A stretch of 63,367 bases of DNA, filler included, from Sphacelaria rigidula (taxonomy: Eukaryota): the NCBI GenBank assembly GCA_964200075.2. It is 9 parts of 9 records of this genome, joined end to end, with 100 filler letters (N's around TTAATTAATTAA, not from the genome) between each part and the next. Parts side by side here need not be neighbours in the genome. Positions count along the whole stretch, not along the records: positions 28,210 to 35,161 come from CAXNAA020017242.1; 8 more parts are not named here. The stretch is one strand, 5' to 3'. The translations under genes were made by a program, and so were the position numbers. Below the pieces are notes generated by a model, which worked only from the letters and a program-made list of their open reading frames with translations, was not told where the DNA came from and ran no database searches. Below are positions 4,484 to 62,940 of the stretch, piece after piece (the first letter of the stretch is position 1; each line of letters begins with the position of its first letter).

Positions 4484-4729
4484 TAGACTTATACAAGTGC
4501 TGGTGGGGATAGGGTCCGTCACGTGTCGCAATTGAAGTCAACCAACGACCCCTACTCTTCTCTTCTTGTTCCAGCTGTTTGTGCTGTGAAATAGTAGTAG
4601 CACACGCGTCATTTTGTCTTGACTTTCCTGTATTCATTCACTTCGCCGCTCATGTGTGCCACGCATCGTCATATACGGACATGTCTGGCGCATCAAAATA
4701 CTCTCCAGAGTTACTTGAGCGCTCTCAAC

Positions 4730-4779
<50 letters not shown>

Positions 4780-6724
4780 ACCCCCCCGTCNNNNNNNTGG
4801 TGGCCCCCCAATGCTCAATACCGGCAATGTCGGCCCAACAAAAACCCCCCCCGGAGTTACTTGGGCCCCCCCACCCCCCCCCCCCCCCCCCCCGCTGCCG
4901 CCCCTCCCGAATCCTAATGACGTCGATCGCCTGATTGTTGTGCAACAGTACCAATTTTACCGACAACTCAAGGGTCCAGCGCGCTCTCCACTGTACAGGC
5001 AATGGATAGGGGCGGCCGTGGAGCCTGGAGATGCCATTACGCATGGCACAGACGGTGTCGACGACCGCAGTCGTTGCTCTCACGCCGTAGCGACCTTTTT
5101 GGGATGAATCCGAGAGTGTGTCGGGTAGGGTATTTCCTACATTTGGGTATTTCAATAGATCGTATACTTGAGCACCCAAAGCATGGGTGGAGCGTTGATA
5201 TCTTACTCAACAATACCTGGATATTGTGTGGAGTAATGCGATCGTGCCTGAGTTTCCCCCATGTAGGGGTATAGTTTGAAGAGTGGACCATCGCAACACA
5301 AAATTCGGGAGAGTAAATACGTAAGTACACGGGTATTCACCCTACTCGACATACGCTTGGATGAATCATTGGACTGCTCTTTTCTCATATCCCCACCCCC
5401 TCCTCATTCACATGCACGTTTCTTGGAGTTTGTGCCCTTATATTGAATAGAGTAGGATCTATAGAGCGAAGTTTGGGATGGCGGCGGGGGTTGGAGTGTT
5501 ATGCGTCCTTCACAGCCGAGCGAAGTGGTTGTAAAGTCACGACGCTAAGGATGGAATCGTCGTGACAAAACATTGACGGAACCAGTTGCCATACTATCGT
5601 ATGGTATGGTATGGTATGGTATACGGTCTCCGTGGCGACGTGTCAGCATAGTCATGATGTACGAGTCACATGTTCTTGCGTATGTTCGCAAGGTGTTCCT
5701 CATTTCTCGATTTAGAGGCATGGTCCTGTGCCCCTTGTTTTCAGAGTTTTTCATCGAGGAAATAGCGTTTTATTTTATTTTACTGAGATATACAGTAGAG
5801 CGAATTTGAAGCGAAAAAGGGCAAAGAAAACAAGATGCTGACAAGACGAGTCGAACCAGCGTGTTCGCGTTGCAAAATACATGAGTCTTCCTCCTTCTTC
5901 CTCAGGACCCATTTGAAAAAGAAAGCTGCGGTTTGGGAACCATGAAATTTTTGCCACGGATTACGCTGTATTTCCGTAGAAGGAGCCGCACTATGAAATC
6001 CGTTCGAAGCGGAATGTGCGTGGATCGAGTCCACTTTCCGGGTACTGTTCCGTGTTTCTGTTATTATGACCTCTGTGCGACCCGACCCGCTTACAAACAA
6101 CCCCGGGCTAGTCAACCCGGGCCGTCTTCCCGGGTCTGTCACCCTGGGACTGTCATCATCCAATCCCCAGTTTGGGAGCGTCATTCTCCCATGTCAAGAT
6201 GTCTCCTCGGGGGTGCATCCCCCACTCTGTCATTCTGTACCTCAACCCAAACCGACTTGCAAAGTCCGTCCTGTTCAAGTCCACGTCGCGGCTCCGCACA
6301 CTCCGTACCCTTTCACCGAATGAGAAGCTACAACCTACACCCACCCACCCTCCGGGTAGGATAAGTCACACTCACCGTCCGACTGTGTCTTATATTTCCT
6401 ATTTTTCTGACGCTACAGTCCCTTCACTCCGTAGAACCACGGTTTTAGCCTTGAAAATCCTTGCTTGTTTTGTTGCCAGTCGGTTGGGGAACCATTGCTG
6501 CAGTACCGAAATGCCGTCGTGTTCTGCTCGGTCATTCCAAACCGACAACATTCGATGCTTGTTGGAGGGAATGAGGTTGCCAGCGCGGCCAATACGAAAT
6601 GTTCATGGGATTCGCGGTGCATAATATAGCCGTGACCTGCTCAACGTTGCCTGCACTGAACGGGGCGCCTTCCTTCCTAAACCCTTTTAGACGTGAAAGT
6701 AAATGGAATCTACGTTCAATATTG

Positions 6725-27009: not shown

Positions 27010-27877
27010 CCCACCCCAACACGCAGCTCAGTCAGTGGATCCTGCCACAATTAGATGCCCAAGTTTTCGCCAACAAGAAGAAACGCCAAAAGTAGTGTGG
27101 TGTCGGTTCAGGCACACATTTCACTGCAGTTACGTTGATGTGTGGCGGCCACGACTGCTGCAGTTCGTGATCTTGTCTTGTTATGTTCGCAATGACGGTA
27201 AACGTGGGGTGGCACCTCGAGGGCGTGTGCTTCCGTAGTAGTACAGCAGCAGCAGCAGCAGCAGCAGCTTGACACTTTTAATTTTGCAGCAAGAGAAAGC
27301 AGCTGATGCCTACTGTACACAGTCCGTGTTCAGGTTCTGAAAAACACTGCAGAACTGCTGTGTTGTGTTGTGTTCAGTGTAGTACTCTGTACTCCATATA
27401 ATGGGGTCACGTTTTGGGCAGTTTTCCGAGACGTTTGTCTCTCCTGTGCATGAGCGCGTATACAATTCAATCGCCCACTCCAACACGAAGCTCAGTCAGT
27501 GGACCCTGCCACAAAATTAGAAGCCCAAGTTTTCGCCAACAAGACGAAGCACCAAAAGTGTGGTGATCTCCGTTCAGGCACACGTTTCACTGCAGTTACG
27601 TTGAAGTGTGGCACCCACGAGTGCTGCAGTTCGTGTTCTTGTCTTGTTATGTTCGCAATGACGGTAAACGTGGGGTGGCACCTCGAGGGCGTGTCCTTCC
27701 GTAGTAGTACAGCAGCAGCAGCTGGACACTTTTAATTTTGCAACAAGAGAAAGCAGCTGATGCATACTGTAAATAGTCCGTGTTCAGGTTCTAAGAAACA
27801 CTGCAGAACTGCTGTTGTATTGTGTTCAGTGTAGTACTCTGTAATCCTTATAATTGGGTCACGTTTTGGGCAGTTTT
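27010..27877 (+). repeat. Direct repeat pair of ~410 bp (27010-27426 and 27473-27877)
   Basis: Both start GCCCACYCCAACACGMAGCTCAGTCAGTGGA, end GGGTCACGTTTTGGGCAGTTTT and carry a (CAG)n of different length. Confidence 0.85.
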
Positions 27878-28209: not shown

Positions 28210-28338
28210 CGTCCCGGCTTTCTAGGGATGCGAGGTCAATGGTCTTATGACCATGGCATGCATGATCATGAGTACACCCCCCAATGGTCATACGACTAAG
28301 GCAAGCAAGAACTGGGTACGCCCCCCCTCCCCTCCCCA
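28210..28338 (+). mobile_element. Stacked 3' ends: family B, C tract, family A, C tract
   Basis: ...CATGAGTACACCCCCC-AATGGTCATACGACTAAGGCAAGCAAG...GTACGCCCCCCCTCCCCTCCCC. Confidence 0.7.
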
Positions 28339-29201
28339 GGTGGGTGAAGATGTGATATCAGGTTTGATGTTCGCGGATGGTTTTGTGGGCATTTCAGAAA
28401 CACCAGGAGGATTGCAGAAGCAGATAGACAAGGCGCTAGAGTACACTAGGAAATGGAAACTGACAGCGTTCCTTGACAAATGCGCGGTGCTCGTCTGTAG
28501 CGAACATGAGAAAAATCCGGTACAGTTCAAGTGGAAGTGGGGAGAAGAGGAACTGCCGATCGTTGACCAGTATACATACCTTGGCGTAGAGATATCAGAA
28601 AAGTGTTCTTGGGATGTATACATACACGAAGAAATAGAAAAGAGTGACGCAAAGATAGGCGGGATGGACGTGATCTTCAGAGACCCGCATCTAGGCACTA
28701 GGATTAAGACATGTACCCTGATGAACGTGATCATACGAAAGGTGGAATATGCCGGAGAAGTACGGGAAGGGAACGTGGAGTTGATGAAGACGTTGGAAGC
28801 AGTACAGATGGCAGCACTTGGATGCTCAAAAACGACGAGTAATACAGTTTTGAGAGCAGAGTTCGGAATGCACTCAGTTGAAACAAAGAGAGACATGAGA
28901 AAATTCACGATGGCAATGAGCGTGAAGGACATGAAGAGGAAGAGATTGCCAGCTATAGTTGATAAGGCTGTACGGAAGAAAGTACGAAAGGGTATGCTAT
29001 AAAGTGGGATATAAAAGTGGAGAAAGTATGGAAGGAGATAGGAGGAAACCGAGACGAAATACTGTCCATAGGTGAAGGCATGGGGTACAAGACAGAAGTA
29101 AGATACATGATAGAAATAAGGGGAAAAGGAGCGCTCATACGCGAAGTAGACGAGGAAGAACACCTGGAGATTCACGGGGGGTTGAAAGAGGGGATAGGGA
29201 T
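28339..29201 (+). pseudogene. LINE family A ORF2 reverse transcriptase, 5'-truncated, interrupted by Copia insertion
   Basis: GLMFADGFVGISETPGGLQKQID...LPIVDQYTYLGVEI non-LTR RT motifs; internal stop at 29002; resumes at 33305. Confidence 0.88.
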
Positions 29202-29611
29202 TGTGCAGATTATGTATTTGACATAGATCTCATACGTAGATTCCCGGGCATATAGCCAACCAGCCTGGTAGAAACCACTGCCGTTCAGTACAAAGTACCA
29301 ACAGGAACGGTCCGGGAACCAGTACTGTAGCCAGGGTTCAGTCGAGCCAGAGCGGCTCCGCGGTTCTATATTGCAAGCTCCCCAGTTGGGGTTTAGGGCT
29401 GAGATTCAGAAAGAGAAAGTTTAGATAGAGCTGTACACCAGCGGGTGACATCTGAATGAATAATGAAAAGCACGGCGATGCAGCGCCCCACTCGGGTACG
29501 TTGTCTGTTCAACTCATCAAGATCTCTCGTGACCATTGCCTTGCTCCGCGATAAAACGGTGCACTGCGAGGAAGCGCGCCACGGCCACACCAAACACCTC
29601 ACAAGTGCACA
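29202..29611 (+). repeat. 5' LTR (410 bp)
   Basis: Direct repeat of 32892-33299; about 13 substitutions and a 2-nt length difference by manual comparison. Confidence 0.95.
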
Positions 29612-29632
29612 GGTTCGTGAGCCTCGAGGAGT

Positions 29633-32600
29633 ATGGAGGCAGACCCACGCAAGTTGCCAGTCTGGACAGGCGTTCGTGGGCACTCGCGAGAAACATGGGA
29701 CGCATTGAGACTTTCCATCGTTGGATACGCAGAGGGGGAGGGACTATACCCCCTGCTGCGACCGGCTTCCACCAAACCGGTCGTTCTGACAGCGACCACG
29801 ACACTTGACCAGCGTAGGGCGTGCGAAACGCACGAACGCAATACACATATTTATGATTCCTCCTGGCAAAGGCTACGAAAGGGTCAGCCGCAGCCATCGT
29901 GGCACGATGCGAGCACGGCGGCAACCCTGATGGCAGGGAAGCCTGGCTGAAGATGGAAGGGATCTACGGAGGACGTGCACAGGACGAGTGGCCTGTGCAA
30001 CTACTTGCATTCGAACAAAGACTGCCGGATCTCCAATGAACTTCTGCAGAAGAATCAGCAGATTTTATGGTGAAGCTGGATACCATCTGGGGAGAAGTCG
30101 AAGCGCTTGGAAACGTCAAAGCCGGCGAGACCAAGACGGCAGCCCTTCTACTCGGGATCAAGGAGGCGCTTCCACAAGTATTCATCCAGCTAACAACCCA
30201 GCCAGGTATGACGTACGATGAGCTAAAACGAGCAGTCGTAGCATCATCAGCATATCTAACGCGTGACATCGAACGCCGCGATGAGGCAGTAGCGTTCCAA
30301 TCGAGAACCGACGGCAACGAAACCGACTCAAGGCTCGATAGCAATCAATGCGCCTACTGTTTGAAGCGAAGTCATAGGTAGCGGGAGTGTCGCTCCCACC
30401 TTAACGGCACACTTCCGGCTAAACGACAGCCGGGGATGAGCCCCGCACGAAGGCTCCCACCCCCTCCGCAAAACGACAGAAGGAATGGGAGGAGGGACAA
30501 ACCGCAGGCATTCATAACGATGAACGTGGTAGTCAAAGATGAGCGAGTAGTACCCATGTGCACGTCGACTAACAGTGACACGAAGGTATCAATTCTCTGC
30601 GACTCGGGAGGGAATGTCCACATGACTCCCTGGAAACAGGATCTCAGGAATATACGTACGGTCAATCGAAGCTGTACATTTTGGAAAAAGGGACAGCTGC
30701 AGGCAATGGCAATGGGAAAGATCCCATTGCACGTGGGCGCTCGGGGAAAGGTGGCTCCGGCAAAGGTCACACTGGAGGACGTACTTTGGGTCCCTGGACT
30801 ACCTTGCTCGCTGCTGAGTACCAGAACGATTCGGCGTGACGGAGGAAAATTCGTGGATTCCGGCAGGAAGGAGAGCTACCTTCGGTTCAGAAAGGATGGA
30901 CCGAAGATCCCCCTAGCCGAGAATAAAGGGTTCCTGACCCTGTCGGCATCGCTGCAGGGGGGTGGCAAACATGCGGCGTCGGCGCACGCTTCGTTCGCAA
31001 ACAAGAAGCAGCGCCTCACATTGAAGGAGTGGCACGACACCTTAGGGTACATCGACCCAGCTGCCATAAAACGCCACGAGAAGCGTGGGCTGATCGATAT
31101 CACTGAAAACACGGCGGCGTCCGAGATGCGCTGTAGAGTCTGCAAGGAATGCAAGTCCGAAGCGCTCAGCTACGGCCGCGGCGGCAGGAGTCCCAAAGCA
31201 CCAGGTGAAGTTGTGCACATTGACCTTGAAGGGCATTTTCACGCCGATGTCATGGGCATGAAATAATTTCAGGTTTTCGTGGATGAGGCCAGTCGAGACA
31301 AGCACATTGTTGGACTCAAGACATGAGATCCAGCCACTGACGCAACGAGAGTCTACATCGACAAAATGGCCCGTGAGGGAGTGGCCATCGAATGCGTCAG
31401 CGGAGACGGCGCTGGGGAACTTGGACGGTCAGTCAAATTTAAACGCATGCTGACCAATCGCGGCATCAAGTGGCGCTCCTCACCGCCAAGGTCACCGCAG
31501 AGTAATGGAATTGCTGAACGTGCCATTCAACAACTGATGAGGACAGCACGCAGCCCACTGGTGAAAGCGGTACGCGGAAAGGACTACTGGTTGTTCGTTG
31601 TGGCGGACGCGGCATTCAAGACCGCAGGGATGCCCCATGAGTACCTCGGGGGGGAGACCCCATGTGAGAGGCTGACAGGAAAGCCTTTCAACTACGACAG
31701 GCTTCGTACTTGGGGGATCCGAGTGTTTCGTGCATCATCACAAGCGACAACGCGGCGCCGCTGCAAAGTTCCACCGATATGCGAAGCGGGGCATCTTGGT
31801 GGGGTACGATCGGCACTCTCTCTGCTGGTATGTATGGCTGATGCAGGAATCAAAGCTCGTTAAGTCTTCATACATCACGTTTGAAACAGAGACCAAGATC
31901 CTAGACATCGTGGGGGACCTGAAGGCGGTCGAACTCAGCGATCACGAGGACGAACCATCGGAAGAAGAGGAAGCAGCACCAATCAACGGCGATGATGGCC
32001 CGGGTGAACAACCACCACAGGACCCGCCATAATCGAAGCGCTCTTCTCTGGATAGTGGACTGCGCAGGTCCAGTCAACTAGCGCAACGGCATCGAGGGGA
32101 CAACGCACAGCAACGCTTCAGAAGTTCTGACGGCAGCAGTTCTGATAGCGGAAATTTCCTCGCCACCCTTCAACAAGATCAACACAAAGGCGCATTCTGC
32201 ATGCTCGGGGGCGGAATCGTTACTGAACCACAGGAGCCGTCGACAGCAAAAAAAGCCCTGGCAGAATCTGATGCTGACAGATAGAAAGTGGTCATGGAAG
32301 AGGAAATCCAGCGGAAGGACAACAAGCCTCAGAGCCGAGAAGCCGGTGAACCGCTGGGACCACGAGTGCTACCGGCGGCGCCTGTAACTCATGCGACTCC
32401 AGGCGCAAACGAGCGCTCCGACGGCCCAAAGACCAGGGTATCCCAGACAAAAAAACGAGCGGCGCGTCGGACTGGAGGATCAAGCCTCCTCAAACAGAGA
32501 TGGTCGTAGACGAGGCCGACTCACCAAACTATCGGAGACGCTGGGCGGTAACGAAGGAGCGAAGCTCGAGAAAATGTTCATGCCGAGCACGGACGGTTCT

Positions 32601-32880
32601 GGCCTTGACCAAGAAACGAAGCAACAGCCCGCGGTGAAAGAAACGACAAAGGCAGTGGAGGGACCACCCAAGGGTGCGGGATGCATGCCGAGCAAGGACG
32701 TTCAAGTTGCCGTTCTCGACGAAGGATGTCAAAACGGAAAAGGCGCCGGAAGTCAGGACGAGTCCAGGGGGTCCAGGTCCACCACGTGGCTTCTATGGCA
32801 TTCAATGGAAAGATTCGTTTGCCTCGTATCTAGCACGTTGGGTTTGATCGTATCAGCTCTCTGCTGTTGCCGCCATACGA
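29633..32880 (+). pseudogene. Disrupted Copia gag-protease-integrase polyprotein
   Basis: Zinc knuckle CAYCLKRSHR*REC; protease ILCDSGGNVHMT; WHDTLGY...CRVC; integrase VHIDLEG / GDGAGE / SNGIAER; GILVGYD; EPST..AL...VMEEEI then no RT. Confidence 0.9.
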
Positions 32881-32891
32881 TCATGGGGGAG

Positions 32892-33299
32892 TGTGCAGAT
32901 TATGTATTTGACATAGATCTCATACGTAGATTCCCGGGCATATAGCCAACCAGCCTGGTAGGAGCCACTGCCGTTCAGTACAAAGTACCAACAGGAACGG
33001 TCCGGGAACCAGTACTGTAGCCAGGGTTCAGTCGAGCCAGAGCGGCTCTGCGGCTCTATATTGCAAGCTCTCCAGTTGGGGTTTAGGGCTGAGATTCAGA
33101 AAGAGAAGGTTCAGATAGAGCTGTACACCAGCGGGTGACATCTGAATGAATAATGAAAAGCACGGCGATGCAGCGCCCAACACGGGTACGTTGTCTGTTC
33201 AGCCCATCAAGATCTCTCTACCATTGCCTTGCTCCGCGATAAAACGGTGCACTGCGAAGAAGCGCGCCACGGCCACACCAAACACCTCACCAGTGCACA
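32892..33299 (+). repeat. 3' LTR (408 bp)
   Basis: Preceded by polypurine tract, followed by TSD. Confidence 0.95.
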
Positions 33300-33304
33300 G
33301 GGAT

Positions 33305-33801
33305 GAAAGAATATCTGCATGGACATGAAAAATATGAAACTGCGATTTTGGGTGGAGGACCTGCACCTGCCAGAAAGAAGAAAGAGATATACCAGTAGTC
33401 GTGTGGAGGAGGAAGTAGATGCACAGAACTGCCTCTGTGGCACAGCAATAGAGAGCAGAAGTCATACAGTGGCAGAATGTGAACTATACAAGGAGGAACG
33501 GGGCGTGCTAGAGGGGGATATGCGGGACGTGAACGAAGGTGGCATGGAACCGTTTTATGCATTGGACAAGAGGGAGAAAACGATGGTTATACTGGGAGAT
33601 AGATGGTGGCCACAGACGGCGAAATAGGACGGGGATAAGATATGTGAACGGTTTTTGTGCAATATATGGAAGAAACGTGATCAGTGCCGGAATGTTGGAG
33701 GTGCCTCTATTAGGAGTAGGAACGGTGCTCCGTCTCGAACGGGATGCATGGTCAAAGGTCAAACGACTAAGGCAAGCAACAAATGTACACGCCCCCCTCC
33801 C
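33305..33801 (+). pseudogene. LINE family A 3' part (C-terminal Cys/His finger and 3' end)
   Basis: CLCGTAIESRSHTVAECELY zinc-finger-like motif; continues the 28339-29201 LINE; ends in C tract. Confidence 0.85.
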
Positions 33802-34110
33802 GGAGGGCATTTTTCCGAAATTGTCATTTTGTCTTTTTGGTCAACTTTGTTGCAAGAAATTGATTAATAAAAAATGCTTCTTTTTTTTTCTGTTAATTTT
33901 CTGCAAGAAGTCTATCAATGAACACTGACAAGACCGAAAAGTCCGGTGGGCTTTGCGAGGTTCGTATATCTTCTTCTGCTCCTTGCCCGTTTTGTCCCGC
34001 GATGACATCAGATGCCGGAGTGCATTTTTTCGAAAATTATCCCGATTTTTTCTTTTTCGTTATTTTTTTTGCAAGAAATTGTCCAATACGATCGGATGTC
34101 ATGACACACA

Positions 34111-34547
34111 GAGTTTTGGCCCACGGATTGTTCACTTTTGGGACGTTCGACCCACTTTTTGATCCCCAAACAGGGAAAATCGCCAACACACGTCTTGGAC
34201 GCTTTGCATCGCCCCACAGAGAAGAGCCTAGCCCACTTTTCAGATTCACTTGGCTCCAAGGTTTTTGAGAGTGGCCGCTGAACAATACTCCGCGTGCAAT
34301 AAAACCTACGGCGATCTTCACAGATTATTAGCAAACAGCCGTATGTTGGCAAGCACAGATTATTGCACACGAATTATTGGTCAGCGGTCAATCTCGAAAC
34401 CTCGGAGCCAAGCGAATCTGAAAAATAGGCTAGGCTCCTCTTGTGGGGTGGTGATGCGAAGTGTCAGAGACGTGGCGATTTTCCCCGCGTGGGGGTCAAA
34501 AAGTGGGTCAAACGTCCCGAAAGTGAACAATCCGTGGGCCAAAAGTC
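34111..34547. mobile_element. Foldback element with ~170-bp imperfect inverted arms
   Basis: TTTTGGCCCACGGATTGTTCACTTTTGGGACGTT ... AACGTCCCGAAAGTGAACAATCCGTGGGCCAAAA. Confidence 0.75.
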
Positions 34548-34553
34548 ACGCGC

Positions 34554-34846
34554 GGCTATTTGGCTACCTCCAAAATTCCTCCAGATGGATAAACTTTTCG
34601 AGTCTCTAGAAGAATCAAACGCCTCCGGAGGGGTGCGCGGCCCTCCAGAGGAGATTTTTTGGTTTCATACAGAGGGATTATACGCCTCCGGAGGTATACC
34701 CCCAAATTCCTCCGGAGGACTGCGCGGCCCTCCGGGTCGGTAGAGTTTGGTTTCCTCCAGAAGGATTGAAGGCGTCCGGAGGGATTTTTTCCCCCTGGAG
34801 GGCCGCGCATCCCTCTGGAGGCATTTCGGGGTGTAGCCAAATGGCC
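34554..34846. mobile_element. MITE with GGCYATTTGGCTAC TIRs and internal CCTCCGGAGG palindromes
   Basis: GGCTATTTGGCTAC ... GTAGCCAAATGGCC; partial homolog at 58218-58350; no TSD recognised. Confidence 0.7.
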
Positions 34847-35064
34847 GGGTGTGGTCTGTTTGCCATAACATCCGGCCTAAACACGGACAAAAACCGAAGA
34901 GTCTGGTGGGCTTTGCGGGGTTTATATATATATATATATCTGCTCCTGCTTCTTGCCCGCTCTGTCCCGATGGCCTCAGGTCTCCTTGCCAAGGATCGCT
35001 CTGTCCACGGCAGCTGGCCGCATTCGCCCAAGTCTCGGCAATAAACCAGGGGACAGACGGCTGG

Positions 35065-35117
<53 letters not shown>

Positions 35118-35161
35118 ACCCCACCCTTTACCTTCGCCCTGCCCCTGATGGATTTCTTCTT

Positions 35162-40314: not shown

Positions 40315-40585
40315 CGGCAAGCATGATGATCGTCAAGCTAGATCATATTATGCGAGGTAGGAGAACCCGAACTCCGCGGAATGGGGATGATCGTGCTACG
40401 TAGTGTTTATATCGTGAGTTCCCCATGATGCAGTGTATAAGCCGTGGCTGTCTCTAGAAGTGGCGATACCAGAAATTGTAGCTATTCGTTGCAGATTGTC
40501 GTCCATGTGTAAGATAATGAGTAGGCGTCGGGCCGCACAATCTTAGCAGGATGCAGCACATCCTTCATGCGATATGCCGAACACA
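40315..40585 (+). mobile_element. SINE-like family B body, interrupted at ~40586 by the repeat also seen at 2073
   Basis: Colinear with ~43490-43750; starts after C-rich tract at 40288-40310. Confidence 0.65.
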
Positions 40586-42313: not shown

Positions 42314-43885
42314 GGGGGAAATGCGGGACGTGAACGAAAGTGGCATGAAATCGTTTTACCCATTAGACAGTAGGGAGAAAACGATGGCTATACTAGGAGA
42401 TACATGGTGGCCAGAGACGGCGAAACAGGACGGGGATAAGATATGTGCAAAAGGTGTTTGTGAAACGTATGGAAGAAACGTAATGAGCGCCGGAATTTTG
42501 AAGATGTCTCTATTAGGTGTAGGAACGGTGCTCCGTCTCGAAAGGGATGCGTGGTCAATGGTCAAACGACTAAGGCAAGCAACGAATGAATGCGCGCCCC
42601 TCCCCACCCCCTCTCCACTCTTGAAGGGTTAGCGTCGGTTGGCATCGACGCTGTAAAACACACCACTCACTGCGAAAGCAAGACAACCAAGCTACCGTTT
42701 TCTTCTCACTTGCGTACGTGATCCCCGCGCAAAGGGGATTATCATACTACGAGTACGTAATATACAATTGGTGAAGCCCAAGAGGCAGCTCAACCCATGA
42801 CTATCCCGGGGGATACCAGAATATGAAGCAACGCATTCGAGGCTGTTATCCATTCGCAAGATGATCAGTACGCTTCAGGCCGGACGATCTTGGTAAGATG
42901 CAGGTTACCCCTTGTGCGACTCGCCGAACATGTGACGGCATTTCGGGCTTGGTGATTGCGACCCTGATCCGGCGAAAACCCGGCGTGCTCACTCCCGGCT
43001 GCGTAGGGATGCGAGGTCAACGGTCTCATCACAATGGCGTGCAATGATGAGTTCACTTCCCGCCCCCACCCCCATATGGTGGGACACGCGAGGAAGTGCG
43101 GCACCCGTGGCTGTCTCTGGAAGTGGCGATGCCAGAAAATGAAGCAGCTCATTTTAGGCTGTCATCCATATGCAAAGCTGTCACTACGCTTCGGGCCGAA
43201 CGATCTTAGCAGGATGCAATTCACCCTATGTGCGTCTCGCCAAACACATAGCGGAGCTTCGCGCTGGGTGATTTATTGCGGGCGCGGTTCGGCGAAACTC
43301 GGCGTGCTCCATCCCCGCTTTTTAGGAATGCGAGGTCAATGATCATATTCTACGGCATATAAGATCATGAGTACCCCACCCCCCCTCCCCCGCCCCCCCT
43401 GGTAATGGCGCTGTAAAGCAAGCCACTCACTGCGTCAGCTAGGCCGCCAGGTTACCGTTTTTGTTTGCACTTGCGTTTTTTGCGGTAACCATGATGGTGG
43501 TCGAGCCAGATCATATTGTGCGGGGTGGGAGGCCCTCAACCCGCTCGCGCGGATGATCATACACCGTAGAGTTTGAATGATGAGACACCCATGAGGTAGC
43601 GTGTAACCCGTAGCTGTCTCTGGACGTGGCGACACCAGAAAATGAGGCAACTCATTGTAGGTTGTCATCCACATGCAAGATAATAAGTACGCTTCGGACC
43701 GAACAATCTTAGCAGGATGGAGCTCACCCTTCATTCGACTCGCCGAACACGTCACGAAGCTTCGCGCTTGGCGATTGATTGCGAGCCTGGTCCGGCGAAA
43801 ACGCGGCGTGCTCCGTCCCAGATTTGTAGGGATACGGGGTAAATGGTCTTATGACTACGGCATGCAAGATCATGAGTGCCCCCTC
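42314..43885 (+). mobile_element. Head-to-tail array: LINE A 3' end (42314-42600) then three family B copies (~42630-43057, ~43075-43375, ~43401-43880)
   Basis: Each unit ends in an ATGAGT-type terminus followed by a C-rich tract, and the next unit starts right after it. Confidence 0.78.
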
Positions 43886-45134: not shown

Positions 45135-48100
45135 ATGGAAGAGTATCATCACCCCACTATGGAAGGGCAAGTGAGATTTCTGACTGAACAAATGAACAGA
45201 ATGAAACAGACAATGAACAGTACACCGGTGATGCCTGCTAGTACAGCACAGCAAGCACCGTTTCATAACCCCAATTCCCACCGTGTGCGCAGCAACAAAA
45301 ACATTCCACCTTGGGATGAAGAAGCTGCCACATCTACCAATTTCAGGGATAGGTTCAAGGTGTTCAACATCCAGATGTGTGCCTATTTCAAGGATGAGAA
45401 ACGCTATGACGCTTTGCTAGTTGAAAACCCCATCAGGGTACACCGTGAGAATGAGGAGGATTTGCGAGCAAGTTTTGGAAACGAAACAGTCGACAAAGCC
45501 AAAAGGGCTATGAGGATAATACTCGATAAAGTAAGCTTTTGCACCTTTGGTAACGCATGTCGATATGCTTGCAAACTCAAGTCAAGCATAGAATTACTTC
45601 GTTCAGTACTACAGGATTCCAGAAGCTACAGAAAAAGCCAAGTTGGAACACGACTGACAAACGTTGCAGATGGCTGACGATGAATTGCCAATTAACTTTC
45701 TCTCGCGGGCCCACGTCACTTTCTACGATAGCCCCCTCCCCACAAGTGCATGGTTTTGGGAGGCAAAATCTTCACGTAAATCGAAATGGGAAAAGCCGAG
45801 CACAACGAGAAGCTGAAAACTCCCACGCCTGGGTTCNNNNNNNNGAACATCAGGCGCTCTATGGCCATTTCTTTCGTGACACTTTAAGCTGGTTTTGGGG
45901 GGGGGGGCTATCGTAGAAAGTATCCCACTTTATTCGTGAGAAGCGCCAAGAATTCGATGTGGTTCTCTCGGACTGTGAAGCAAACAGGCATATTGTTCGA
46001 TGCATTTCATAAGAGTAGGAGCACGAGCGCAGGAATTTACTAGCACTACGAGAGATAAGCGTAGATGAGGTAACCAGCCAGCTAGGAAATGCGTATGCAG
46101 AAGCGCAATTGTTGAAAGAAAGGCAGAAAATAACCTTGAACCATGCACGTTCCGCCTCTAGTACTGGTGGAAGGGGCCATGGATCACCTGGCGGATGGCA
46201 GAACAGGGGGAATCGCAGATCCCACAATCCGCAAAATCAACAAAACAACCACATCCCTCCAAACCCACACCAATCCATTTTCCATACCAACCATGGTTCA
46301 CAGCAACACAACAAACAGCAGTGGTCATGGTGGTCGAGGGGGATTCCCCGAGACCACAGCCATGGCGACCACACAGTCCGTGGAATCATTTGGAACCAGG
46401 CCGTGGTCGGATACACCAACCTAGTCAACGAACCTACCAAATTCGTTGCCCTTTTCATTGTCTCAACTGCACTCCTTGTCAGTACCACGCGCAGCATCAC
46501 AAAGCCCAGCAACCCCCAATTCCCCAGCACCGCCAACCAACATACACGGGCCAAACACGCCACCGACAACAATCCAACCACACAGCCAATCACATCCCAT
46601 CACAATCCCATTACCCGCATCCTCAACACCAAATCCACAACCATCAACCACAAGCCAACACCGTCCAGCAGACTGATCCCCCGTACCAGAACCATGAGAG
46701 CGTTGAAAACGTTGTCAACGGGGACGATGCTTTCAACGATGCCGGTTACGCCCACACAGTACAATACCACACCTCCCAACATCAACTGCAGTCGCAGCCT
46801 ACCACAATCACGGAACACCTCCCCCACTACACTCCACCTCCATCATCCAGTCACCATCCCTCACAGTTTTCAGAACACAACCAATCCCAATACTATTCCT
46901 CGTCAACCGCACCACAGACCTATTACCCATCACAACTTCAACCGCCAGACCACTCCCACCGTGATCCTTTCTCCGCCGCACCACAGACCCATCACCCATC
47001 ACAATTTCCACCCCCAGACCACTCCCACCATGATCCTTCCTCCCCTCCACCACCACCACCGCACTCGTCACTCTACCACGAGCCATCCGACCGATATTCC
47101 CATTCGGTAAACTCCCACCAAACCTCAACTGCCAATCTGCCGCTTGCTGATAACCGTGGTAATAGTGTGCACATGGCGCTTTCTGCCGTGCCAGAGGAAT
47201 CAGTTTTCAGTTTAGGTGAACCCGACATTAGCAGTAAAGTCATCTTGCATCGATCCAGATCTGTGCCCGACCCTGATGCAGAGATATGGATAGCTAATTC
47301 AGGCGCATCACACCATACCACTGGGGACATGACTCATGTTTTTGATACTCACCCTCCTCCGCCGGGGAACGAGAGTGTTATTCTGGGTGATGGTACGGTA
47401 CTACCGGTTAAGGCTGTAGAAGTCTCAAGCTGAGACTTTATCAAGCACGTGCAAACAACTCCCCCCCATGTCGATGCAGTGTGTGTATTGCTGACGGATG
47501 TGTATATTTTGGATGGAATTTAGTTCAATCTCTTCTCCATTCACAAGGCCCAAAAGAGCCAACGAGTCATCTGTGATAAAGAAGGTGTGCATTTATTCGA
47601 TGGCAGATTGCGGTTTGACTGCACTAAGCGCTCATGATCACAATTTGCCCCACGCCTCTCGTGTACCCACGGACAGATGCCCGTGGTCACGCCTGTTGTT
47701 GCGGCCAGAAAAGACACGGTTCCTATTTCCACTCCACAACAAGCAAGTGTCACTGAGATTCCCCCGATTTTTGATTCCGGATCCCGAGGAGGTAGTGTTC
47801 GTAAGACCACCCCGAGTTCTGTCCCTGTCCCCCTGCAGAAGAGTGTCACAAGTGTTTCGTCGAATTCTGTTCCTGCCCCCCCGCAGAAGAATGTCACGAG
47901 TGTTCCCTCGAGTTCTGTTCCTGTCCCCCCGCAGACGAGTGCTACAAGTGTTCCCCCCCGCCTACCCACGATTGATGGTACTTCTACTGTTGCTTCAGGG
48001 CTGTATGTTGTTCCCGGGCTACCGAAATGCGACCTCAGCATGTTTTTTGATCAGCAGCTACTGTTGGGAATAGACGGTACTTCCCCTATAATGCCCCCCC

Positions 48101-49070
48101 CCTTTTTTGAGTCTTGAAGAGTTGAGTGAAGGGGAGAGAGTATACATGGTTTTTGCAGTACTGGCACCCAGTCGAGGACCCTTCACGGTCGGCAAACTAC
48201 GAAGCCGAGTGGACGTCGGTTTTTTCCATGCCTCCCTCTACCACGCGAACGAGACTATCCTTCGAGCTACTGCCGCACAACGGGGTATCATCCTCACCGG
48301 ACGACTGGAACCGTGCAAAGGATGCTTCGAGAGTAAGGGACGACGGGCAGGTATTCCGCATGTGGGCTTACGTGCTTTGACGGTGCTCGACATCGTGCAC
48401 CTCGACTTGACCGGACCTCATACACGTACTCTGGGAGGGTCCATGTACATGTTAGCCTGCGTCGACAGTAAATCTCGTTTGATTATGCTGTACGGGCTAG
48501 CACGGAAGGCGGGTGACTTGGCGATGGTGAAACGCTACCTCGCTGATATCAACCGCTTCGGTATCCCGCGCTGCTTCCGCATCGACAACGGTGGTGAGTT
48601 TCTCTCCCAAGCCTTCATCGACTTCTGTTATAACGCCCGTATCCGCCGCGAGACCACCGCGCCTGATACTCCCAAGCAGAACGCGGTCACCGAAAGATCA
48701 ATCTGGCGCATAATGAAGGCCGGGCACGCCGCGCGCTGCGAGGCATCACGACTGTTCCCCGACATCGATTTGCCGAGGTTCCACACCTTGGCGGCAGCCT
48801 GAATCTTCTATGGCTAGAGGCCGCCGTCTGGGATGGTTTCAACCGCTCCGCAACTACGGCCAACCCCGGCAAGCTTCCTCCATACCAAGTCTTCACGGCC
48901 GACAGCCACCTCTCCAAAACGTACCTTTTCTACAGCCCGGTATGATGCGCGTCACCCGAAGATCGAAGAAGGACGTCCAAGCTGTGCGCTGCTTCTACCT
49001 CAACAATGGCAGCAACCATTCCTCAACAACAATCAAGGTTCTCAAGGCCGACATAGGTGCTGTTTATTCC
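45135..49070 (+). mobile_element. Second Copia family, degraded gag-PR-IN, 3'-truncated
   Basis: Gag from MEEYHH; protease WIANSGASHH (~47285); FHASLYH...CKGC; integrase VHLDLTGP / RIDNGGEF / QNAVTER (48107-48802); multiple frameshifts; LTR not delimited (possibly within 43890-45000). Confidence 0.85.
45715..45924. mobile_element. MITE inserted in Copia gag, 4-bp TSD CCAC
   Basis: TIR CACTTTCTACGATAGCCCCC / GGGGGCTATCGTAGAAAGT; removal restores frame FLSRAH-FIREK; homolog at 57409-57668. Confidence 0.8.
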
Positions 49071-52220: not shown

Positions 52221-55200
52221 CGGGGGGGCGGGGGGCGTACTCATTTATTGTATCTTATACTAGTCGTTTGAGCATTGACCACGCATCTCTTGCGAGACGG
52301 AGCACCGTTCCTACTCCTGATCGAGAAATTTTCAACATTGGGGCGCTCACTCGCTTCTTCCGTACACTACACAGAAACCTTTTGCATGTCTTGTTTCCCC
52401 GTGTGTGGCCACCATGTATCTCCTAGTATAGCCATCGTTTTCTCACTACTATCTAATGCATCAAAGGATTTCATGCCACCTTCGTTTACTTTCCACATTT
52501 TCCCTTGTAGCATGCCCCGTTCCTCCTTGTATAGTTCACATCCCGCCACTATAAAAGTTGGCGCGACCTATTTGCAGGTGGGGTACGCAACTACACGCGT
52601 GCAGGTCGCGATCACCTCCGGAGCCAAACCCACAAGAAACCCTATTTGAAATGCTGCTCACAAGAAACAATAGCCGTACTCCACGGCAACTCATAGCACG
52701 GCAGTAACACCGGAAAGAAATTCTTGGCCGCAGGGCAGGATACCACGAACGTAGGCGACGATGACTTCTGTGCTCGATACTACCGGGAATCATAGAATGA
52801 ACCGTATTTTCTTGGAGCACTTCCTGGGGCAATCTCTCAAAGAACAGAAACGTGTTGATAGTCACTGCGGCGTCAGGGACAACAGACCATCAGCTGAGGG
52901 TTCAAATGCAATCCTGTCATGCGTGAGTGCGATTGCGTAATAACTGTCCACGCCCGCCGTGGCCCATGCGCGGGAAAACTGCGTGTGCGGGCAAATAACT
53001 ACATGCTGATCGATACCGCGGTACTCTGAGCACTTTACAATGCCATATATACGCAAGGAGGGAAGTGACCTTGTGAAATCACACCATTGAACTTCAAATA
53101 CTTGTCTGTTGTCTGCTATGCGGCCTGTACTGTACACTCTACATAGTAGATAACAGACAACTGTAGTACACTACTAGTTAGTACCGTACAGGCCTTGTAG
53201 TGCTCTATACAGGTAACAAGTGGTACGAGACATAAACACTACTACTACTCGCGCAACCGCCTGGATAGCGTGCGCAGTGAACAGATGGCGCGCCGTCTTG
53301 TACAACAGTGCAACCGTATGATATGGCGGGATTATCGAAAGCAAGCAGCTGCTGCATATACAGTCGGTGTACTCAGATCACCCATGCAATCGACATGCGC
53401 GGCGGTTGGCTGGCCAATAACACAGCACGACTGTTGGCTTGTCAGTACAGTATCGAGCAGAGAGCTCATCGCCACTGTGGTGTGTCACCTTCTGCTCTAC
53501 GATAAGATCCCTTCCTTTTTGTCCTGCTCTAGACTGCTGCGGAGTGCGACTGACTGAAGTTCCGTGTGTGGAGTGTTTCGGTTTCAAATTGGGGATGTCG
53601 TGAACTTGATTCTGGAGGCGTTCGCGACCTGCACGCTTTATTTTGCATGCCCCACCTGCACATAGGTCCCGCCACATGAGTTCTACTCTCTGCAGCCTTG
53701 ACAGGGGCATTTCTGTGCATCTACCTCCCCCCTCCACTCGACTATAAGTATATCTTCCTCTTTCTGCCAGGTCCACGTCCCCACTCTAAATCGCAGTTTC
53801 AATTTTTCACCGCGTCCATTGGGCCATGCAGATATGTTGTCTTTCCTATCCACTCGCCCAACCTGCCGTATATGTTCAAGTGCTCTTCCGCGTCTACGTT
53901 CCGACTTCGCGTTTCTTTTTCCCTTATTCCTATCATGACTTACTTTTGTCTTTTACCTCCCTCGCATTCCCGTATGGACGTTATCTCGTCTTGGTTTTCC
54001 CTTATGTCCTTCCATATTTTCTCGGCCACGCTATCCCACCTTATTCCAGTCTGCCCTTTCGTCATTTTCTTCTATACAGCCCTATCAACTATAGCTGGCA
54101 GTCCCTCTTTCTTAATGTTCTATGCGCTATATTGTGAGTTCAGTTTCCTCGTGTCTCTGCTTGTTGCAAGTGAGTACATCCCCCACTCTGCTCTCAATGC
54201 TGTATTACTCGTCGTTTTAGAGCACCCAAATATCTTCTTAGCTGCTGCCATCTGTACTGTTTGCAACTTTTTCGCGAACTTCGCGTTCTCCTCCCATACT
54301 TATCCTGAATATCCCAGCTTTGGTACAACCAAGTTCATCAGGATACATCTCTCGATCCTGGTGTCTGGATGCGGGTCTCTCAGGATCACGTCCATCTTTC
54401 CTACATGTGCCTTACCCCCTTCCATTACTTGTTCATGTGTGCATCCCAAGAGCAGTTTCTTGAGATCTCTACGCCAAGGTATGTATACTGGTCTACGATC
54501 GGCGGTTCCTCTTCTCCCCACTTCCATTTGAACTCCACGGGGTTCCTCTGATCTTCGCTACATTCAAGTGCCGAGCACTTGATAACGTTCGCTGTCACTC
54601 TCCATTTCCTAGTGTATTCTGCCGCCTTCTCTATTTACTTCTGCAATCCTTCCGGTGATCCTGATATCCCCACAAAATCACCCGCGAATATTAATCCCGA
54701 TACCATATCTTTACCCACCTTGACCCTTCTTGCTTTGCTGCTTCCAATACTCTTATCAGGCCATTAATAAATACCTTGAATAAAGTGGGTCATGACGTAC
54801 ATCCTTGTGCAAACTCCTTGTGAAATATCAAAATACAATATTTCGATATTTCCCCGTCTAGGACCATAGCCCTTTTCGCACTTTTTCTCATCTTCTTTAC
54901 CATTCTTCACATCTTTGCTGCAATCTCAGTTTCCCGCATTTTTTTCACAGCTTATTTGTCCATACCGCACTATTGGCCTTTCGTACGTCTAGAAATAAAC
55001 AGTAAGTTGTTCGTAGCCTGGCGTTTTCCCTACCTTAGACAATCTTACCCAATGTGTACACGTTGGTGTAAAACCTTTTTTCCCCTCGCTGATTTTCTTC
55101 CTTTCTCTAGCATCGTTCCCACTTTATCGTTCAGAGTCTTACAAAATGTTTTTTTACCATATTTAGTAGCGTTATCCCTCTATGATTCCCTAGGTCGGCT

Positions 55201-56416: not shown

Positions 56417-57408
56417 AAAAATAACTACCAACCCCCCCCATCCCCACCACCAAAATACACAAAAATTTTTTTTCATAACATCCCCCCCCCCCCCCCCCCC
56501 CCCTCCCTTCTCCCCCTCCCCGTATCTTGTGGTACCACCAGGGTTGCTGCGCCACCTCGGGAGAGGGGGTATACGAAGGATTGGATTGGCTGTCTCAGGC
56601 GCTCAAGAACGAGAAGAAAGCTACCCACAGAACAAGTTCTGGTCCCGGCTTTTAAGCGTATACGTTTCGTAGTACAAGAACTACAAAGATAGTGGGCGGA
56701 GAGAGAGAAACGTCAAAAAGTGTCCCGACTGAAAAATGATGGGGGAAAAGACAAAGACAGGCGTAGCACGCAGCGTGTCTTAAATCCATTCTAAGAGGGT
56801 GATATTAATGGTAATCGAGATAGGTGGTGTTGGGGCTGTGAACGGAAAGCGAACGGTAGGTACACACGTTTTTACTTCAAGTGGAGAACGACCTTTTACT
56901 TCAAGTGAAGAATAACCGTCCATTTTTCGCTACGCAGTGCCGGTACCGACGACTCGCTCTCCTTCTTATCCTCCATAAGGATATGTTGCTGTCGCGATTA
57001 AGGTCGGACGCACCAAACCGTACCATACCCAAATCAGGGCTTCACGCCGTGTGCGTTCCCCTCGCGGACATGATGCTGCTGTTGTGACATCACCCTTGGG
57101 TTAACCAGTCGACAACGTGGATCTATTACCTGACAGAGGAGCGGAAGGGGCTTGGGGTCGGGCGTAGTCCTTGTGGTTTATGTCTTCACCGTTGACCTGC
57201 TGACCGCACACACTCTTCCAGCATGAGCGATCGCCTATGGCTGGTTGCTCATTTCGCAATTTGTTTCTTGATGAAGCTAAGGAAGCAGGAGGGGGGGAGG
57301 GATATTATTGTTGCTCTCTCTGGGTGACTGGCAATGGTAAAATCTGGCTGAAGGAGGAGTGGGGAGGGGGGGTAGCATATGATCGGCGTGAGGCCGATGA
57401 AATGTTGT

Positions 57409-57668
57409 GACACTTTCTACGATAGCCCCCCCCCCCCCAAAAGTGCCCGGTTTGGGGAGGCGATTTTTTCATGTAAGTCGAAATGGAAAAGCCGAGCACG
57501 ACGGGCAGCTGGGAATTCCAACGCTTGGGTTCGTTCTTGTCAATGTCGCCCATATGAGGTGCTTCATGCAGCCTGCAGCCTGAACCCAAACATCAGGCGC
57601 TGTATGACCATTTTTTTCGTGACACTTTTGGGCCGGATTTGAGGGGGGGGGGGATCGTAGAAAGTGTC
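57409..57668. mobile_element. MITE (GACACTTTCTACGAT TIR family)
   Basis: GACACTTTCTACGAT ... ATCGTAGAAAGTGTC; TGT on both flanks. Confidence 0.8.
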
Positions 57669-58217
57669 TGTAAGGATAACTCACGAAACGAAACACTTTG
57701 AAACTAGGGAATATGTGTGGTGTGGGGGCCATTCGTCTTATTTCCGAAGGCGTTCGATCATCGACGAGGAATGGAAGAATGGCCTTGGAGCGTTTCCGTC
57801 GCGAGACCGCTTACTTTCGGATGTTCGAGTGATGCGGGGACTTGAGTGCACGTGGGAAGAATAAGTAGGTCGGACTGAGCCTTTTTCGACACAACGTGGC
57901 AGAGCACCGCACCGCGCCGTGTAGCGGCTTGATTGTTCTGTTCCGTTTGTTGAGCAGCAGAAAAATCGACGTCGCCGTATCAAAGTTGTCCGTCTTTTTT
58001 TGCATTTCCTTGGCCCATGTGCGACCTTGTGCGTGTCTACAAGCAGTAGGTGTTGCGGCCACAGGTCGTCGGCATTTTATGGATAGTTAATTAAAAATAG
58101 CGTGAGTCATCCTCTTGTGTAACTTGTGCATGTGCACTTGTGCATGTGCACATGAGTGACGCGGGAATGATACGAACTGAAAACAGAAGAGAAAACAGCG
58201 TCAAGTCCTCCACTCGT

Positions 58218-58350
58218 GGCCATTTGGCTACCCCCAAAATTTCTTCAGGTCGGTCAAATTTTCGAGTCTCCAGAGGGATTAAACGCCTCCGGAGGCTTGT
58301 TTTCGCCTCTGGAGGGCCGCGCATCTCTCCGAAGGTATTTTGCTACCCCC
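58218..58350 (+). mobile_element. Partial GGCCATTTGGCTAC MITE abutting truncated Copia LTR
   Basis: Homologous to 34554-34846. Confidence 0.65.
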
Positions 58351-61300: not shown

Positions 61301-62469
61301 TCGAATTCCCCCCCAGATGGTGTCCAGCTTCACCATAACATCTGCTGATTCTTCTGCAGAATTGCATTGGAGATCCCGTAATCTTCGTTCCAATGCAAAG
61401 TAGTTGCACAGGCGGCTCGCCCTGTGTACGTCCTCCGTAGATCCGTTCCATCTCCAGCCAGGCTTTCCTGCCGTCAGTGTTGCCGCCGTGCTCGCATCGT
61501 GCGACGATGGCTACGGCTGAACCTTTCGTAGCCTGTGCCAGGAGGAACCATAAACACTGTATATTGCGTTGGTGTGTTTCGTACGCCCTACGCTGGTCGA
61601 GTGTTGTGGTAGCTGTCGGAACAGCCGGTGTGGTGTAATCCGGTCGCAGCAGGGGTTATAGTCCTTTCCCCCCTGCGTATCCAACGATGGAAAGTCTCCA
61701 TGCATCCCATGTTTCTCGCGAGTGCCCACGAGCGCCCGTCCAGACTGGCAACTTGCGTGGGTCCACCTTCATACTCCTCGAGGCTTACGAACCTGTGCAC
61801 TTGTGAGGTGTTTGGTGTGGCCGTGGCGTGCTTCCTCGCAGCGCACCGTCTTGCAGCGGAGCAAGGCAAATATCACGAGAGATCTTGATGGGTTGAGCAG
61901 ACGACGTACCCGAGTGGGGCGCCGCATCGCCGCGCTCAACACTATTCGTTCAGACGTCACCTGCTGGTGTACAGCTCTATCTGAACTTTCTCGCTCTGAA
62001 TATCAGCCCTAAGTCCCAACAGTAGAGCATACAATATATAGCCGCGGAGCCGTTCTGGCTCGACCGAACACTGGCTACAGTACTGGTTCCCGGACCGTTC
62101 CTGTTGGTACTTTGCACGGTTCGGACGAATCATCGCCGGTTCGAATCACCAAATCCACGATTTCTCAGGCCTGATTGATCGAAAGAGAGAAAAAAGTCGA
62201 CCGCGGGTCAAACAGGTCTTCACGCAACGTTTGCCCCATTCCACGTGCCTGGGCTTCGCGTACCTGGGTTGCAACGCTGAAAACCAAGCGTAAGGATTGA
62301 TTCGTACCGTACGAATCAATCACACTATAATCAAGTAATTTCCGGACTGATCATTAATTCGTCCGACCCCTGGTACTTTGTACTGAACCGTACTGGCTCC
62401 TGCTAGGCTGGTTGACTACATGCTTGAGAATCTACGTATGAGATCTATGTTCGATACATAATCTGCACA
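58351..62469 (-). mobile_element. Second copy of the RT-less Copia family
   Basis: 5' LTR 61794-62469 (with MITE insertion); truncated 3' LTR ~58351-58488; PPT 58489-58495; PBS-like GGTTCGTAAGCC; CAYCLKRGHRWREC, ILCDSGANVHMT and integrase core motifs; EPSTAKEAL...WKVVMEEEI then no RT. Confidence 0.92.
62115..62372. mobile_element. hAT-type MITE (258 bp) in Copia 5' LTR
   Basis: TIR CACGGTTCGGACGAAT / ATTCGTCCGACCCCTG; 8-bp TSD GTACTTTG at 62107-62114 and 62373-62380; the other LTRs show the empty site. Confidence 0.88.
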
Positions 62470-62559
62470 GTCTTCATCCCCACACAAGCAGCGCAGCATA
62501 GCGAGTATGCACGGTCGTGTAACACACCCGCGACTTCCATCGTTATGTGCAATCAGCCA

Positions 62560-62815: not shown

Positions 62816-62940
62816 TACAGAACTGGGGGAGAGATGGGTTGATCCCTGAAGACCACAGACCGGTCCCGAGGAAGAGGAGGAATTCAAAATGTGACAACAA
62901 AATGATTTCTCCGCCCCCCTTCGCCCCCCCCCTCCCCCCC

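Follow-up and report, generated by a model that had tools for sequence, protein, structure and literature searches.

Can a Copia retrotransposon lose its reverse transcriptase (RT) and RNase H (RH) and still spread as a family that carries gag, protease (PR) and integrase (IN)? The question is raised by an element at positions 29202-33299 of a 63,367-nt stretch of DNA from Sphacelaria rigidula (assembly GCA_964200075.2). This stretch, referred to here as the window, is made up of nine pieces, each of about 7 kb; N44-12 nt-N44 spacers separate them, and a few short runs of N also occur within pieces. The element (copy 1, in piece 5, 28210-35161) and a second one (copy 2, in piece 9, 56417-63367) code for gag, protease and integrase and then, in place of RT-RH, pass into an unrelated segment called the tail. 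They belong to a real, multi-copy Copia lineage without RT-RH, and it is highly probable that this family has spread with RT supplied in trans.

Copy 1 lies on the plus strand and has the ends of a Ty1/Copia element. Its long terminal repeats (LTRs; 5' LTR 29202-29611, 410 nt; 3' LTR 32892-33299, 408 nt) both run from TG to CA; their alignment shows 14 mismatches in 408 positions and one additional 2-nt gap (96.6% identity; Kimura two-parameter distance 0.035). They are bounded by a 5-bp target-site duplication, GGGAT, read directly at 29197-29201 and 33300-33304, and a polypurine tract (PPT), GGGGGAG (32885-32891), abuts the 3' LTR and is identical in copy 2. These features had been named when the DNA was first inspected by sequence alone (the sequence-only reading), and LTR alignment and direct reading bear them out. 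Between the 5' LTR and the start codon stands an 18-mer resembling a primer-binding site (PBS), GGTTCGTGAGCCTCGAGG (29612-29629), of which 17 of 18 positions are kept in copy 2; it does not begin with TGG, and no tRNA gene was found in the 63,367-nt window.

The internal region of 3280 nt codes for gag, protease and integrase. The gag segment (29633-30420), whose frame is disrupted by stops and a single frameshift, all private, is collinear in tblastn with the gag of a related polyprotein, P0001; a zinc knuckle, CX2CX4HX4C, can be recognized by eye near 30350-30395, and the Pfam family Retrotran_gag_2 matches P0001 (E=3e-4) and another relative, P0030 (E=7e-4), weakly and below cut-off. The protease region (30595-30840) matches Pol_BBD (PF22936, E=3.1e-10) and contains a DSG motif by eye. 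The integrase (30990-31891), recognized by a profile of six relatives and by Pfam, includes the zinc-binding H..H / C..C motif, the DDE core and an SH3-like domain (SH3_retrovirus, E=1.1e-9; rve_3, E=3e-4, weak and below cut-off). The top match of profile A2 in the PDB was chain 7z0h_W, 'Integrase' (E=0.0026, positions 2-202 of 207). A linker with the pre-RT motif EPST..AL..DADRWKVVMEEEI follows (31892-32311). The collinear tblastn matches to P0001 and P0030, with Pol_BBD, the integrase profile and SH3_retrovirus in sequence, confirm that the Copia order gag-PR-IN-pre-RT is kept.

Homology to the RT-bearing relatives ends at 32311, right behind ...RWKVVMEEEI (DADRWKVVMEEEI), where the tblastn match to the relative P0003 stops at its residue 412; the equivalent point in P0030 lies about five residues ahead of the start of Pfam RVT_2 at residue 906. 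From here to the end of the PPT copy 1 has 580 nt (32312-32891) that are not RT-RH, close to the 580-600 nt of unrelated sequence first estimated. Most of this is the tail (32312-32847), about 180 codons that were in frame with the integrase in the ancestor and end in a TGA at 32845-32847.

It could be supposed that the filler is a decayed or frameshifted RT/RNase H, and two off-frame strings, RTVLALT and FYGIQ, do recall Copia RT motifs by eye. A 484-position RT-RH profile was built from six relatives (P0003, P0008, P0009, P0010, P0012 and P0030) and run with filters off against 12 frames, six per copy; its best match in either copy had E=1.7 and a negative score. The integrase profile of the same six proteins, used as a positive control on the same decayed copies, reached 6e-132 in copy 2 and 3e-103 plus 1e-31 in copy 1. 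With P0003, P0008 and P0009 as tblastn queries no match past the pre-RT motif appeared in the tail at E<=10, and Smith-Waterman comparison of the tail with RT against shuffled sequences gave z values of -0.8 to 1.6 in 12 comparisons. Pfam reported neither RVT_2 nor RNase H in 10 open reading frame (ORF) pieces of copy 1, and no RVT_2 in the 4 copy 2 ORFs scanned, whereas RVT_2 is found in P0030 (E=7e-46) and P0003 (E=7e-34). Because the tail is as alike between the two copies as the integrase is, a remnant of RT would remain recognizable. By the outcomes of the profile, tblastn and Smith-Waterman searches the likeness of RTVLALT and FYGIQ to RT motifs is a matter of chance, and a decayed polymerase is hardly credible as the origin of the filler; the absence of RT/RNase H, as first read, stands. 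Both copies thus lack the RVT_2-type RT and RNase H of a Ty1/Copia element, and are Copia derivatives by descent rather than complete members.

Copy 2 lies on the minus strand at 58352-62469, one nucleotide short of the span first assigned to it (58351-62469). Within its 5' LTR (61792-62469) an insertion of 253 nt occupies 62118-62370; its internal region (58494-61791) holds gag-PR-IN-linker-tail with the same junction (tail at about 58536-59094, TGA at 58533-58535); and its 3' LTR is truncated to the first 142 nt or so (58352-58493). The two copies are 88.5% identical over 3770 columns, and the identity is spread along the element: 89.0% in the 5' untranslated region, 90.6% in gag, 89.5% in the protease, 89.5% in the integrase, 89.8% in the linker and 88.2% in the tail. 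Such near-even identity means that the tail was already in the element of the common ancestor. The shared junction and filler stand as first described, and the in-frame read-through needs a correction: in the 340-aa ORF that reads through in copy 2, some 42 codons are out of frame, enclosed by two 1-nt indels that compensate each other.

Are these two insertions, or could a single dead, deleted copy have been multiplied by segmental duplication or by an artefact of assembly, with no transposing family behind it? The window has only two copies, and copy 2 has an unreadable target-site duplication and a 3' LTR that is cut off. Yet the two copies have unrelated 5' flanks and differ by 11.5%. Their LTR pairs have diverged unequally, by 3.4% in copy 1 and by 10.8% in copy 2 (14 of 130 comparable positions, a value that rests on the 142-nt 3' LTR fragment), much as the estimates by eye of about 3-4% and about 10% had it. 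Many more tail variants occur in four sequencing runs, and 13 related ORFs in a protein database, as described below. Moreover, in the same runs (X1, X3, X4 and X6), contigs of paralogous copies of the repeat that flanks copy 1 join 29201 to about 33327 (8, 7, 8 and 1 contigs, respectively). These empty-site contigs stop at 29201, and the loose-end consensus behind that position (GAAAACATATCTGCATGG...) agrees with the 3' flank of copy 1 (GAAAGAATATCTGCATGG...); the paralogous empty sites confirm the boundaries of copy 1. A duplication or an artefact is refuted by the flanks, the unequal LTR divergences and the further tail variants, and is left with a vanishingly small probability. With different flanks, a target-site duplication around copy 1 and paralogous empty sites, the two copies in the window are independent insertions, as had been proposed.

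The surroundings of the insertions show some features of their own. Copy 1 is nested in a very high-copy repeat (28226-29201 and 33305-33800), whose summed contig depth is 10-100 times that of the element. An ORF in this repeat (28226-28999) has a faint match to RVT_1 (E=0.15), with related pieces at 54243-54720, and the repeat may be an element of the long interspersed nuclear element type. A GGGGAT(G)A-like sequence stands beside the 5' LTR at both sites (29185-29201 and 62470-62485), and the string GGGGATGAAGA is common to the surroundings of both; with n=2, a target preference and chance are indistinguishable. The 253-nt insertion in the 5' LTR of copy 2 has imperfect terminal inverted repeats (GGGGTCGGACGAAT... 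/ ...ATTCGTCCGAACC) and, on its two sides, a direct duplication of 13 nt (GTACAAAGTACCA / GTGCAAAGTACCA); it resembles a miniature inverted-repeat transposable element.

Neither copy is intact, and the manner in which each has been broken is informative. Copy 1 contains 7 in-frame stops and 4 frameshifting indels between its ATG at 29633 and its TGA at 32845, and copy 2 contains 3 stops and 5 frameshifting indels over the same frame. None of the 10 stops and none of the 9 frameshifts is shared. Since all of these disruptions are private, the last common ancestor had a single open gag-PR-IN-tail frame of about 1,075 codons. The copy 1 stop codons at 31264, 31324, 32030 and 32282 read as non-stop codons in nearly all contigs (sites 31266, 31324, 32031 and 32283). 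The tail of copy 1 has gained 1 nt and lost 23 nt through two indels that are private to it. Once two private indels per copy are allowed for, the 191 codons of the tail contain no internal stop in either copy. Composition-matched shuffles of the tail contain 6.7-7.5 stops on average, and only 0.12-0.18% of 5000 shuffles have none; the other two frames of the tail have 2-7 stops. The tail was accordingly translated as the C-terminal portion of the polyprotein rather than being a spacer. That a new C-terminal tail had taken the place of RT is thus upheld, for it was in frame with the integrase in the ancestor of both copies.

The family extends well beyond these two insertions. A search with the tail of copy 2 (195 aa) among 1.84 billion cluster representatives at E<=0.001 returned 13 proteins, 12 of them at E<=1e-10. 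All 13 are short (81-163 aa), use the same frame and are 37-75% identical to the query, and their alignment contains in-frame indels. Seven could be traced, to short contigs (591-2675 nt) from Logan (six) or ENA (one). Three, P0020, P0024 and P0028, cross from the pre-RT motif into the tail, so the junction is kept in diverged members, among them P0028, the most diverged of all. Contigs from the four sequencing runs, placed at a likeness of at least 80%, also cover the tail: at nine listed tail sites, 7-34 contigs in X1, 5-28 in X3, 7-31 in X4 and 2-12 in X6 carry a letter other than that of copy 1. Those at site 32283 run on for at least 74-96 nt in both directions and hence over the junction (32311/32312); every run has at least one contig that spans it by more than 31 nt both ways. 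The counts represent many variants, copy 2 among them, rather than copy number, and the runs may include the sample from which the window itself came. Runs that contain the sequence carry the labels 'organism A', 'algae metagenome' and 'protist metagenome'; X6 is RNA on a guess at most, and its tail contigs are no firm sign of expression. Contig depth in X1 is 5.5-8.9 thousand in bins of the tail and 16.5-36 thousand in bins of gag-IN, with LTR bins also above the tail, and is of no use for ranking the parts of the gene. The supposition that more than a lone element was present is thus confirmed, both by the 13 diverged tail ORFs, three with the junction, and by the tail variants in four runs. 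The epithet 'long-lived' fares less well; tail divergence (37-75% identity) suggests it, but no date can be attached.

The tail itself is acidic and rich in proline and serine, and its end is somewhat better conserved (...PPRGF.GI.WK..F.SY). It matches no Pfam family, the ESM Atlas gave no usable match to P0021 as query, and no relatives outside the family were found among the 1.84 billion representatives. The AlphaFold2 model, based on 13 aligned sequences, has a mean pLDDT of 55, a pTM of 0.14 and no secondary structure elements, which suggests an intrinsically disordered segment.

How might such a family have moved? In the explanation favored here, the starting point is the structure: the whole RT-RNase H segment of pol is missing, and a part of the ORF of about 190 codons, predicted to be disordered, is fused to the end of the integrase, its stop about 40 nt ahead of the PPT. 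The parts that retrotransposition requires in cis (LTRs, PBS-like site, PPT) are kept. That at least two insertions have the same RT-less structure implies, given the established mechanism of LTR retrotransposition, that RT-RH was supplied in trans. The master of both window copies carried an intact gag-PR-IN-tail ORF, and hence the family was probably 'semi-autonomous', with Gag, protease and integrase of its own. Actual use of these proteins is favored by the intact ORF of the ancestor and by the open frames of the diverged tails; the chances that they were used are about even. Taken as a whole, an RT-less Copia lineage with RT-RH provided in trans and a semi-autonomous ancestor with its own Gag, protease and integrase is reasonably probable.

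Several results weigh against this explanation. Both copies in the window are dead and between them contain 10 stops and 9 frameshifts. No purifying selection is visible between them: the ratio of nonsynonymous to synonymous substitution rates (dN/dS) is 0.80 in gag-PR-IN, 0.73 in the linker and 1.02 in the tail, and the differences fall evenly over the codon positions (71/76/71). None of 487 candidate proteins of 187-595 aa, and none of 913 of 596-2000 aa, bears the tail; no intact gag-PR-IN-tail polyprotein is on record, and the search of representatives gave no long match. The 13 tail ORFs are themselves an ascertained sample, drawn from a protein database that takes open frames only, so that their openness is a weaker sign of selection. 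A particle and an integrase produced by the family itself, as first proposed, are accordingly a possibility for the ancestor with its intact ORF; the copies at hand are decayed and near-neutral, and no tail-bearing protein of 187-2000 aa was found. As to dN/dS, the LTR divergences imply that some two thirds of the 11.5% by which the copies differ postdates insertion, so the test has low power and is uninformative.

The same results can be read as the record of a passive, non-autonomous deletion derivative, in which gag-PR-IN-tail would be an unselected leftover, all proteins would come in trans and the deletion would be recent relative to the insertions. The dead copies, the dN/dS values of 0.8-1.0 with differences even across codon positions, and the failure to find a long tail-bearing protein all agree with this; moreover, non-autonomous families with partly decayed POL domains appear common in sugar beet, 15 families being described (PMC13570524). 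A passive derivative is harder to reconcile with an intact ancestral ORF of about 1,075 codons, with a tail frame that is open in both copies (shuffling P about 0.001-0.002), and with 13 diverged sequences, the lowest at 37% identity, whose tails are likewise open and show in-frame indels. The open tail in diverged members and the junction in P0028 argue for long persistence of the open frame. Passive derivation is possible on this evidence, though it must be considered rather improbable.

A stronger form of the semi-autonomous explanation would hold that this is a long-lived lineage in which Gag, protease and integrase are under selection, RT-RH alone is outsourced and the integrase has gained a selected, disordered C-terminal domain. 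It can be put forward only tentatively, as a doubtful proposition. If selected, the tail might serve in tethering, or in an interaction with the RT or particles of the partner.

The partner is most likely to be found among autonomous relatives of the same Copia clade. By integrase identity the nearest named proteins come from two brown algae, Sphacelaria rigidula (81-83%) and Choristocarpus tenellus (59-70%). An RT-bearing relative is present in S. rigidula as P0003 (NCBI CAM9301783.1), whose integrase is 81% identical to that of copy 2 and which, as noted above, carries RVT_2; it is a candidate for the source of RT. An intact autonomous polyprotein of the clade is P0030 (1384 aa, ENA). P0030, P0003 and P0008/P0012, together with the element L001, resemble the window copies in a collinear arrangement of gag, protease (Pol_BBD), integrase with SH3-like domain, linker and pre-RT motif, and the integrases of the window copies are 61-83% identical in protein sequence to those of P0030, P0003 and P0008/P0012. 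They differ in that elements of the P0030/P0003 type carry RVT_2 and RNase H where the window elements carry the tail.

L001 emerged from a metagenome scan with an integrase alignment, as the one relative (61% identity) among 232 pattern matches; none of the 232 was a close relative. It is a distant autonomous element that has in common with the window family the start of the LTR, TGTGCAGA, and a G-rich PPT, reading AAGGGGGG at that position. Between its pol stop at 4541 and its PPT/LTR at about 5152/5162 lie some 610 nt of non-coding sequence (4542-5160), which is unusually long for a Copia element. A parent with an L001-like spacer could have provided a tail of this length, by deletion or splicing. 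The spacer of L001, however, is full of stops in every one of the six frames and does not resemble the window tail (hidden Markov model E>=0.15; blastn matches of 8-13 nt only).

The splicing route is a distinct proposal for the origin of the family, and fits either functional reading. A spliced or shortened subgenomic RNA would have been reverse-transcribed, with RT-RH removed as an intron and the parent's pol-PPT region of about 600 nt becoming the tail. The gap in L001 is of the same length class as the tail, and RNA splicing in Ty1/Copia elements is documented in Arabidopsis (PMC5580714). Three further sequences also lend themselves to this proposal. P0001, P0034 and P0035 fall in the same 90% cluster as the autonomous P0030, with about five differences by eye up to 'DAFCMM', and then depart from it into a basic tail of 115-123 aa without RVT_2 (Pfam on P0001 alone). 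P0001 and P0035 are intact ORFs of 976-984 aa and P0034 one of 742 aa; all run through the integrase. An out-of-frame RT as the source of the P0001 tail was considered and rejected, at best 41 of 115 residues being compatible against a background of 25 +/- 4. On the other hand, the L001 spacer is closed in all six frames, unlike the open tail of the window family, and the P0001-type tail is unrelated to that tail (z -1.2 to 0.3). An origin by splicing is accordingly quite unlikely, though it retains some weight.

Like the window family, the P0001-type forms belong to this clade and have gag-PR-IN without RT. Their non-RT tail begins about 20 residues further upstream and is basic where that of the window family is acidic, and they are known from ORFs that possibly represent transcripts rather than genomic copies. 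They may be alternatively spliced transcripts; as far as the sequences allow, it may also be that RT-less gag-PR-IN forms arise repeatedly in the clade. If so, this second and unrelated form would mean that a division of labor has arisen more than once, perhaps via splicing.

Elsewhere in the window a second, unrelated LTR-type element occupies 46019-48799. An integrase core lies at 48092-48799 (rve, E=6e-10), Pol_BBD matches faintly at 46162-47430 (E=0.031), and the piece ends before the position of RT. The regions 42774-43800, 40385-40584 and 27046-27722 contain direct repeats, each about 200 nt long, at spacings of 316-503 nt and with 62-91% identity.

In a Copia element RT-RH forms the 3' end of pol, so that a single internal 3' deletion yields the subset gag-PR-IN, and the structure as such is unsurprising. 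Interest attaches to the tail, which is in frame and occurs across the family, and to an open frame that has apparently persisted. A family that kept gag, protease and integrase in one frame and lost only the polymerase would represent a cleaner division of labor between retroelements, and could reveal which of the proteins are needed in cis and which may be shared. Were the tail a selected extension of the integrase, it would be a candidate for a new targeting or interaction module. There are also consequences for annotation, for such elements are Copia by their integrase and yet fail RT-based classification, and RT-based surveys of brown algae would miss them.

Non-autonomous LTR elements are usually described as gene-less (TRIM, LARD) or as gag-only (TR-GAG, Quinta, Sabrina). 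The window family is not of the TRIM, LARD, TR-GAG or BARE-2 type. TRIM and LARD elements have no internal coding capacity, and here the ancestor possessed an ORF of about 1,075 codons; TR-GAG elements have a single GAG-only ORF, and here protease and integrase are present as well. BARE-2 has a defective gag and retains pol, the reverse of an element that keeps gag and is missing RT-RH. No described Copia family with gag-PR-IN and without RT-RH was found in the literature searched, which took in neither supplementary tables nor subscription journals, where one may be described.

Non-autonomous LTR elements that still code for some of the proteins are well established, and several published families approach the window family in one respect or another. 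TR-GAG elements of plants are non-autonomous and keep part of their coding capacity (PMC4350172), and gag-only families of Ectocarpus, such as Copia-N1_Ec32, show that non-autonomous Copia elements occur in brown algae (PMC12477816). Both kinds keep gag alone, whereas the window family has protease, integrase and a new C-terminal part in addition. In sugar beet, the 15 families mentioned above each keep one or more POL-associated domains (RT, RH, INT or CHD) in partly decayed form, which makes families with partial domains a recognized category; these domains are described as partly decayed remnants, while the ancestor of the window family had a complete open gag-PR-IN frame and a new tail (PMC13570524).

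Further parallels come from RLG elements. Partner pairs of autonomous and non-autonomous LTR elements are recognized by a common PBS and common LTR termini, and by overlapping periods of activity and population structure (PMC9744471). RLG_Sabrina and RLG_WHAM are both without RT and INT (PMC11302176, PMC9744471). RLG_Quinta of wheat, whose pairing with RLG_Cereba rests on identical PBS and LTR termini, derives from an autonomous LTR element and has lost RT but has an intact ORF for GAG plus a domain of unknown function (DUF1), and is thought to be cross-mobilized while contributing a protein of its own (PMC11302176). Quinta thus resembles the window family in having lost RT while keeping a partial ORF together with an additional domain. 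It differs in being a Gypsy element that has GAG only, its integrase lost as well, whereas the window family is of Copia descent and has both protease and integrase (PMC11302176).

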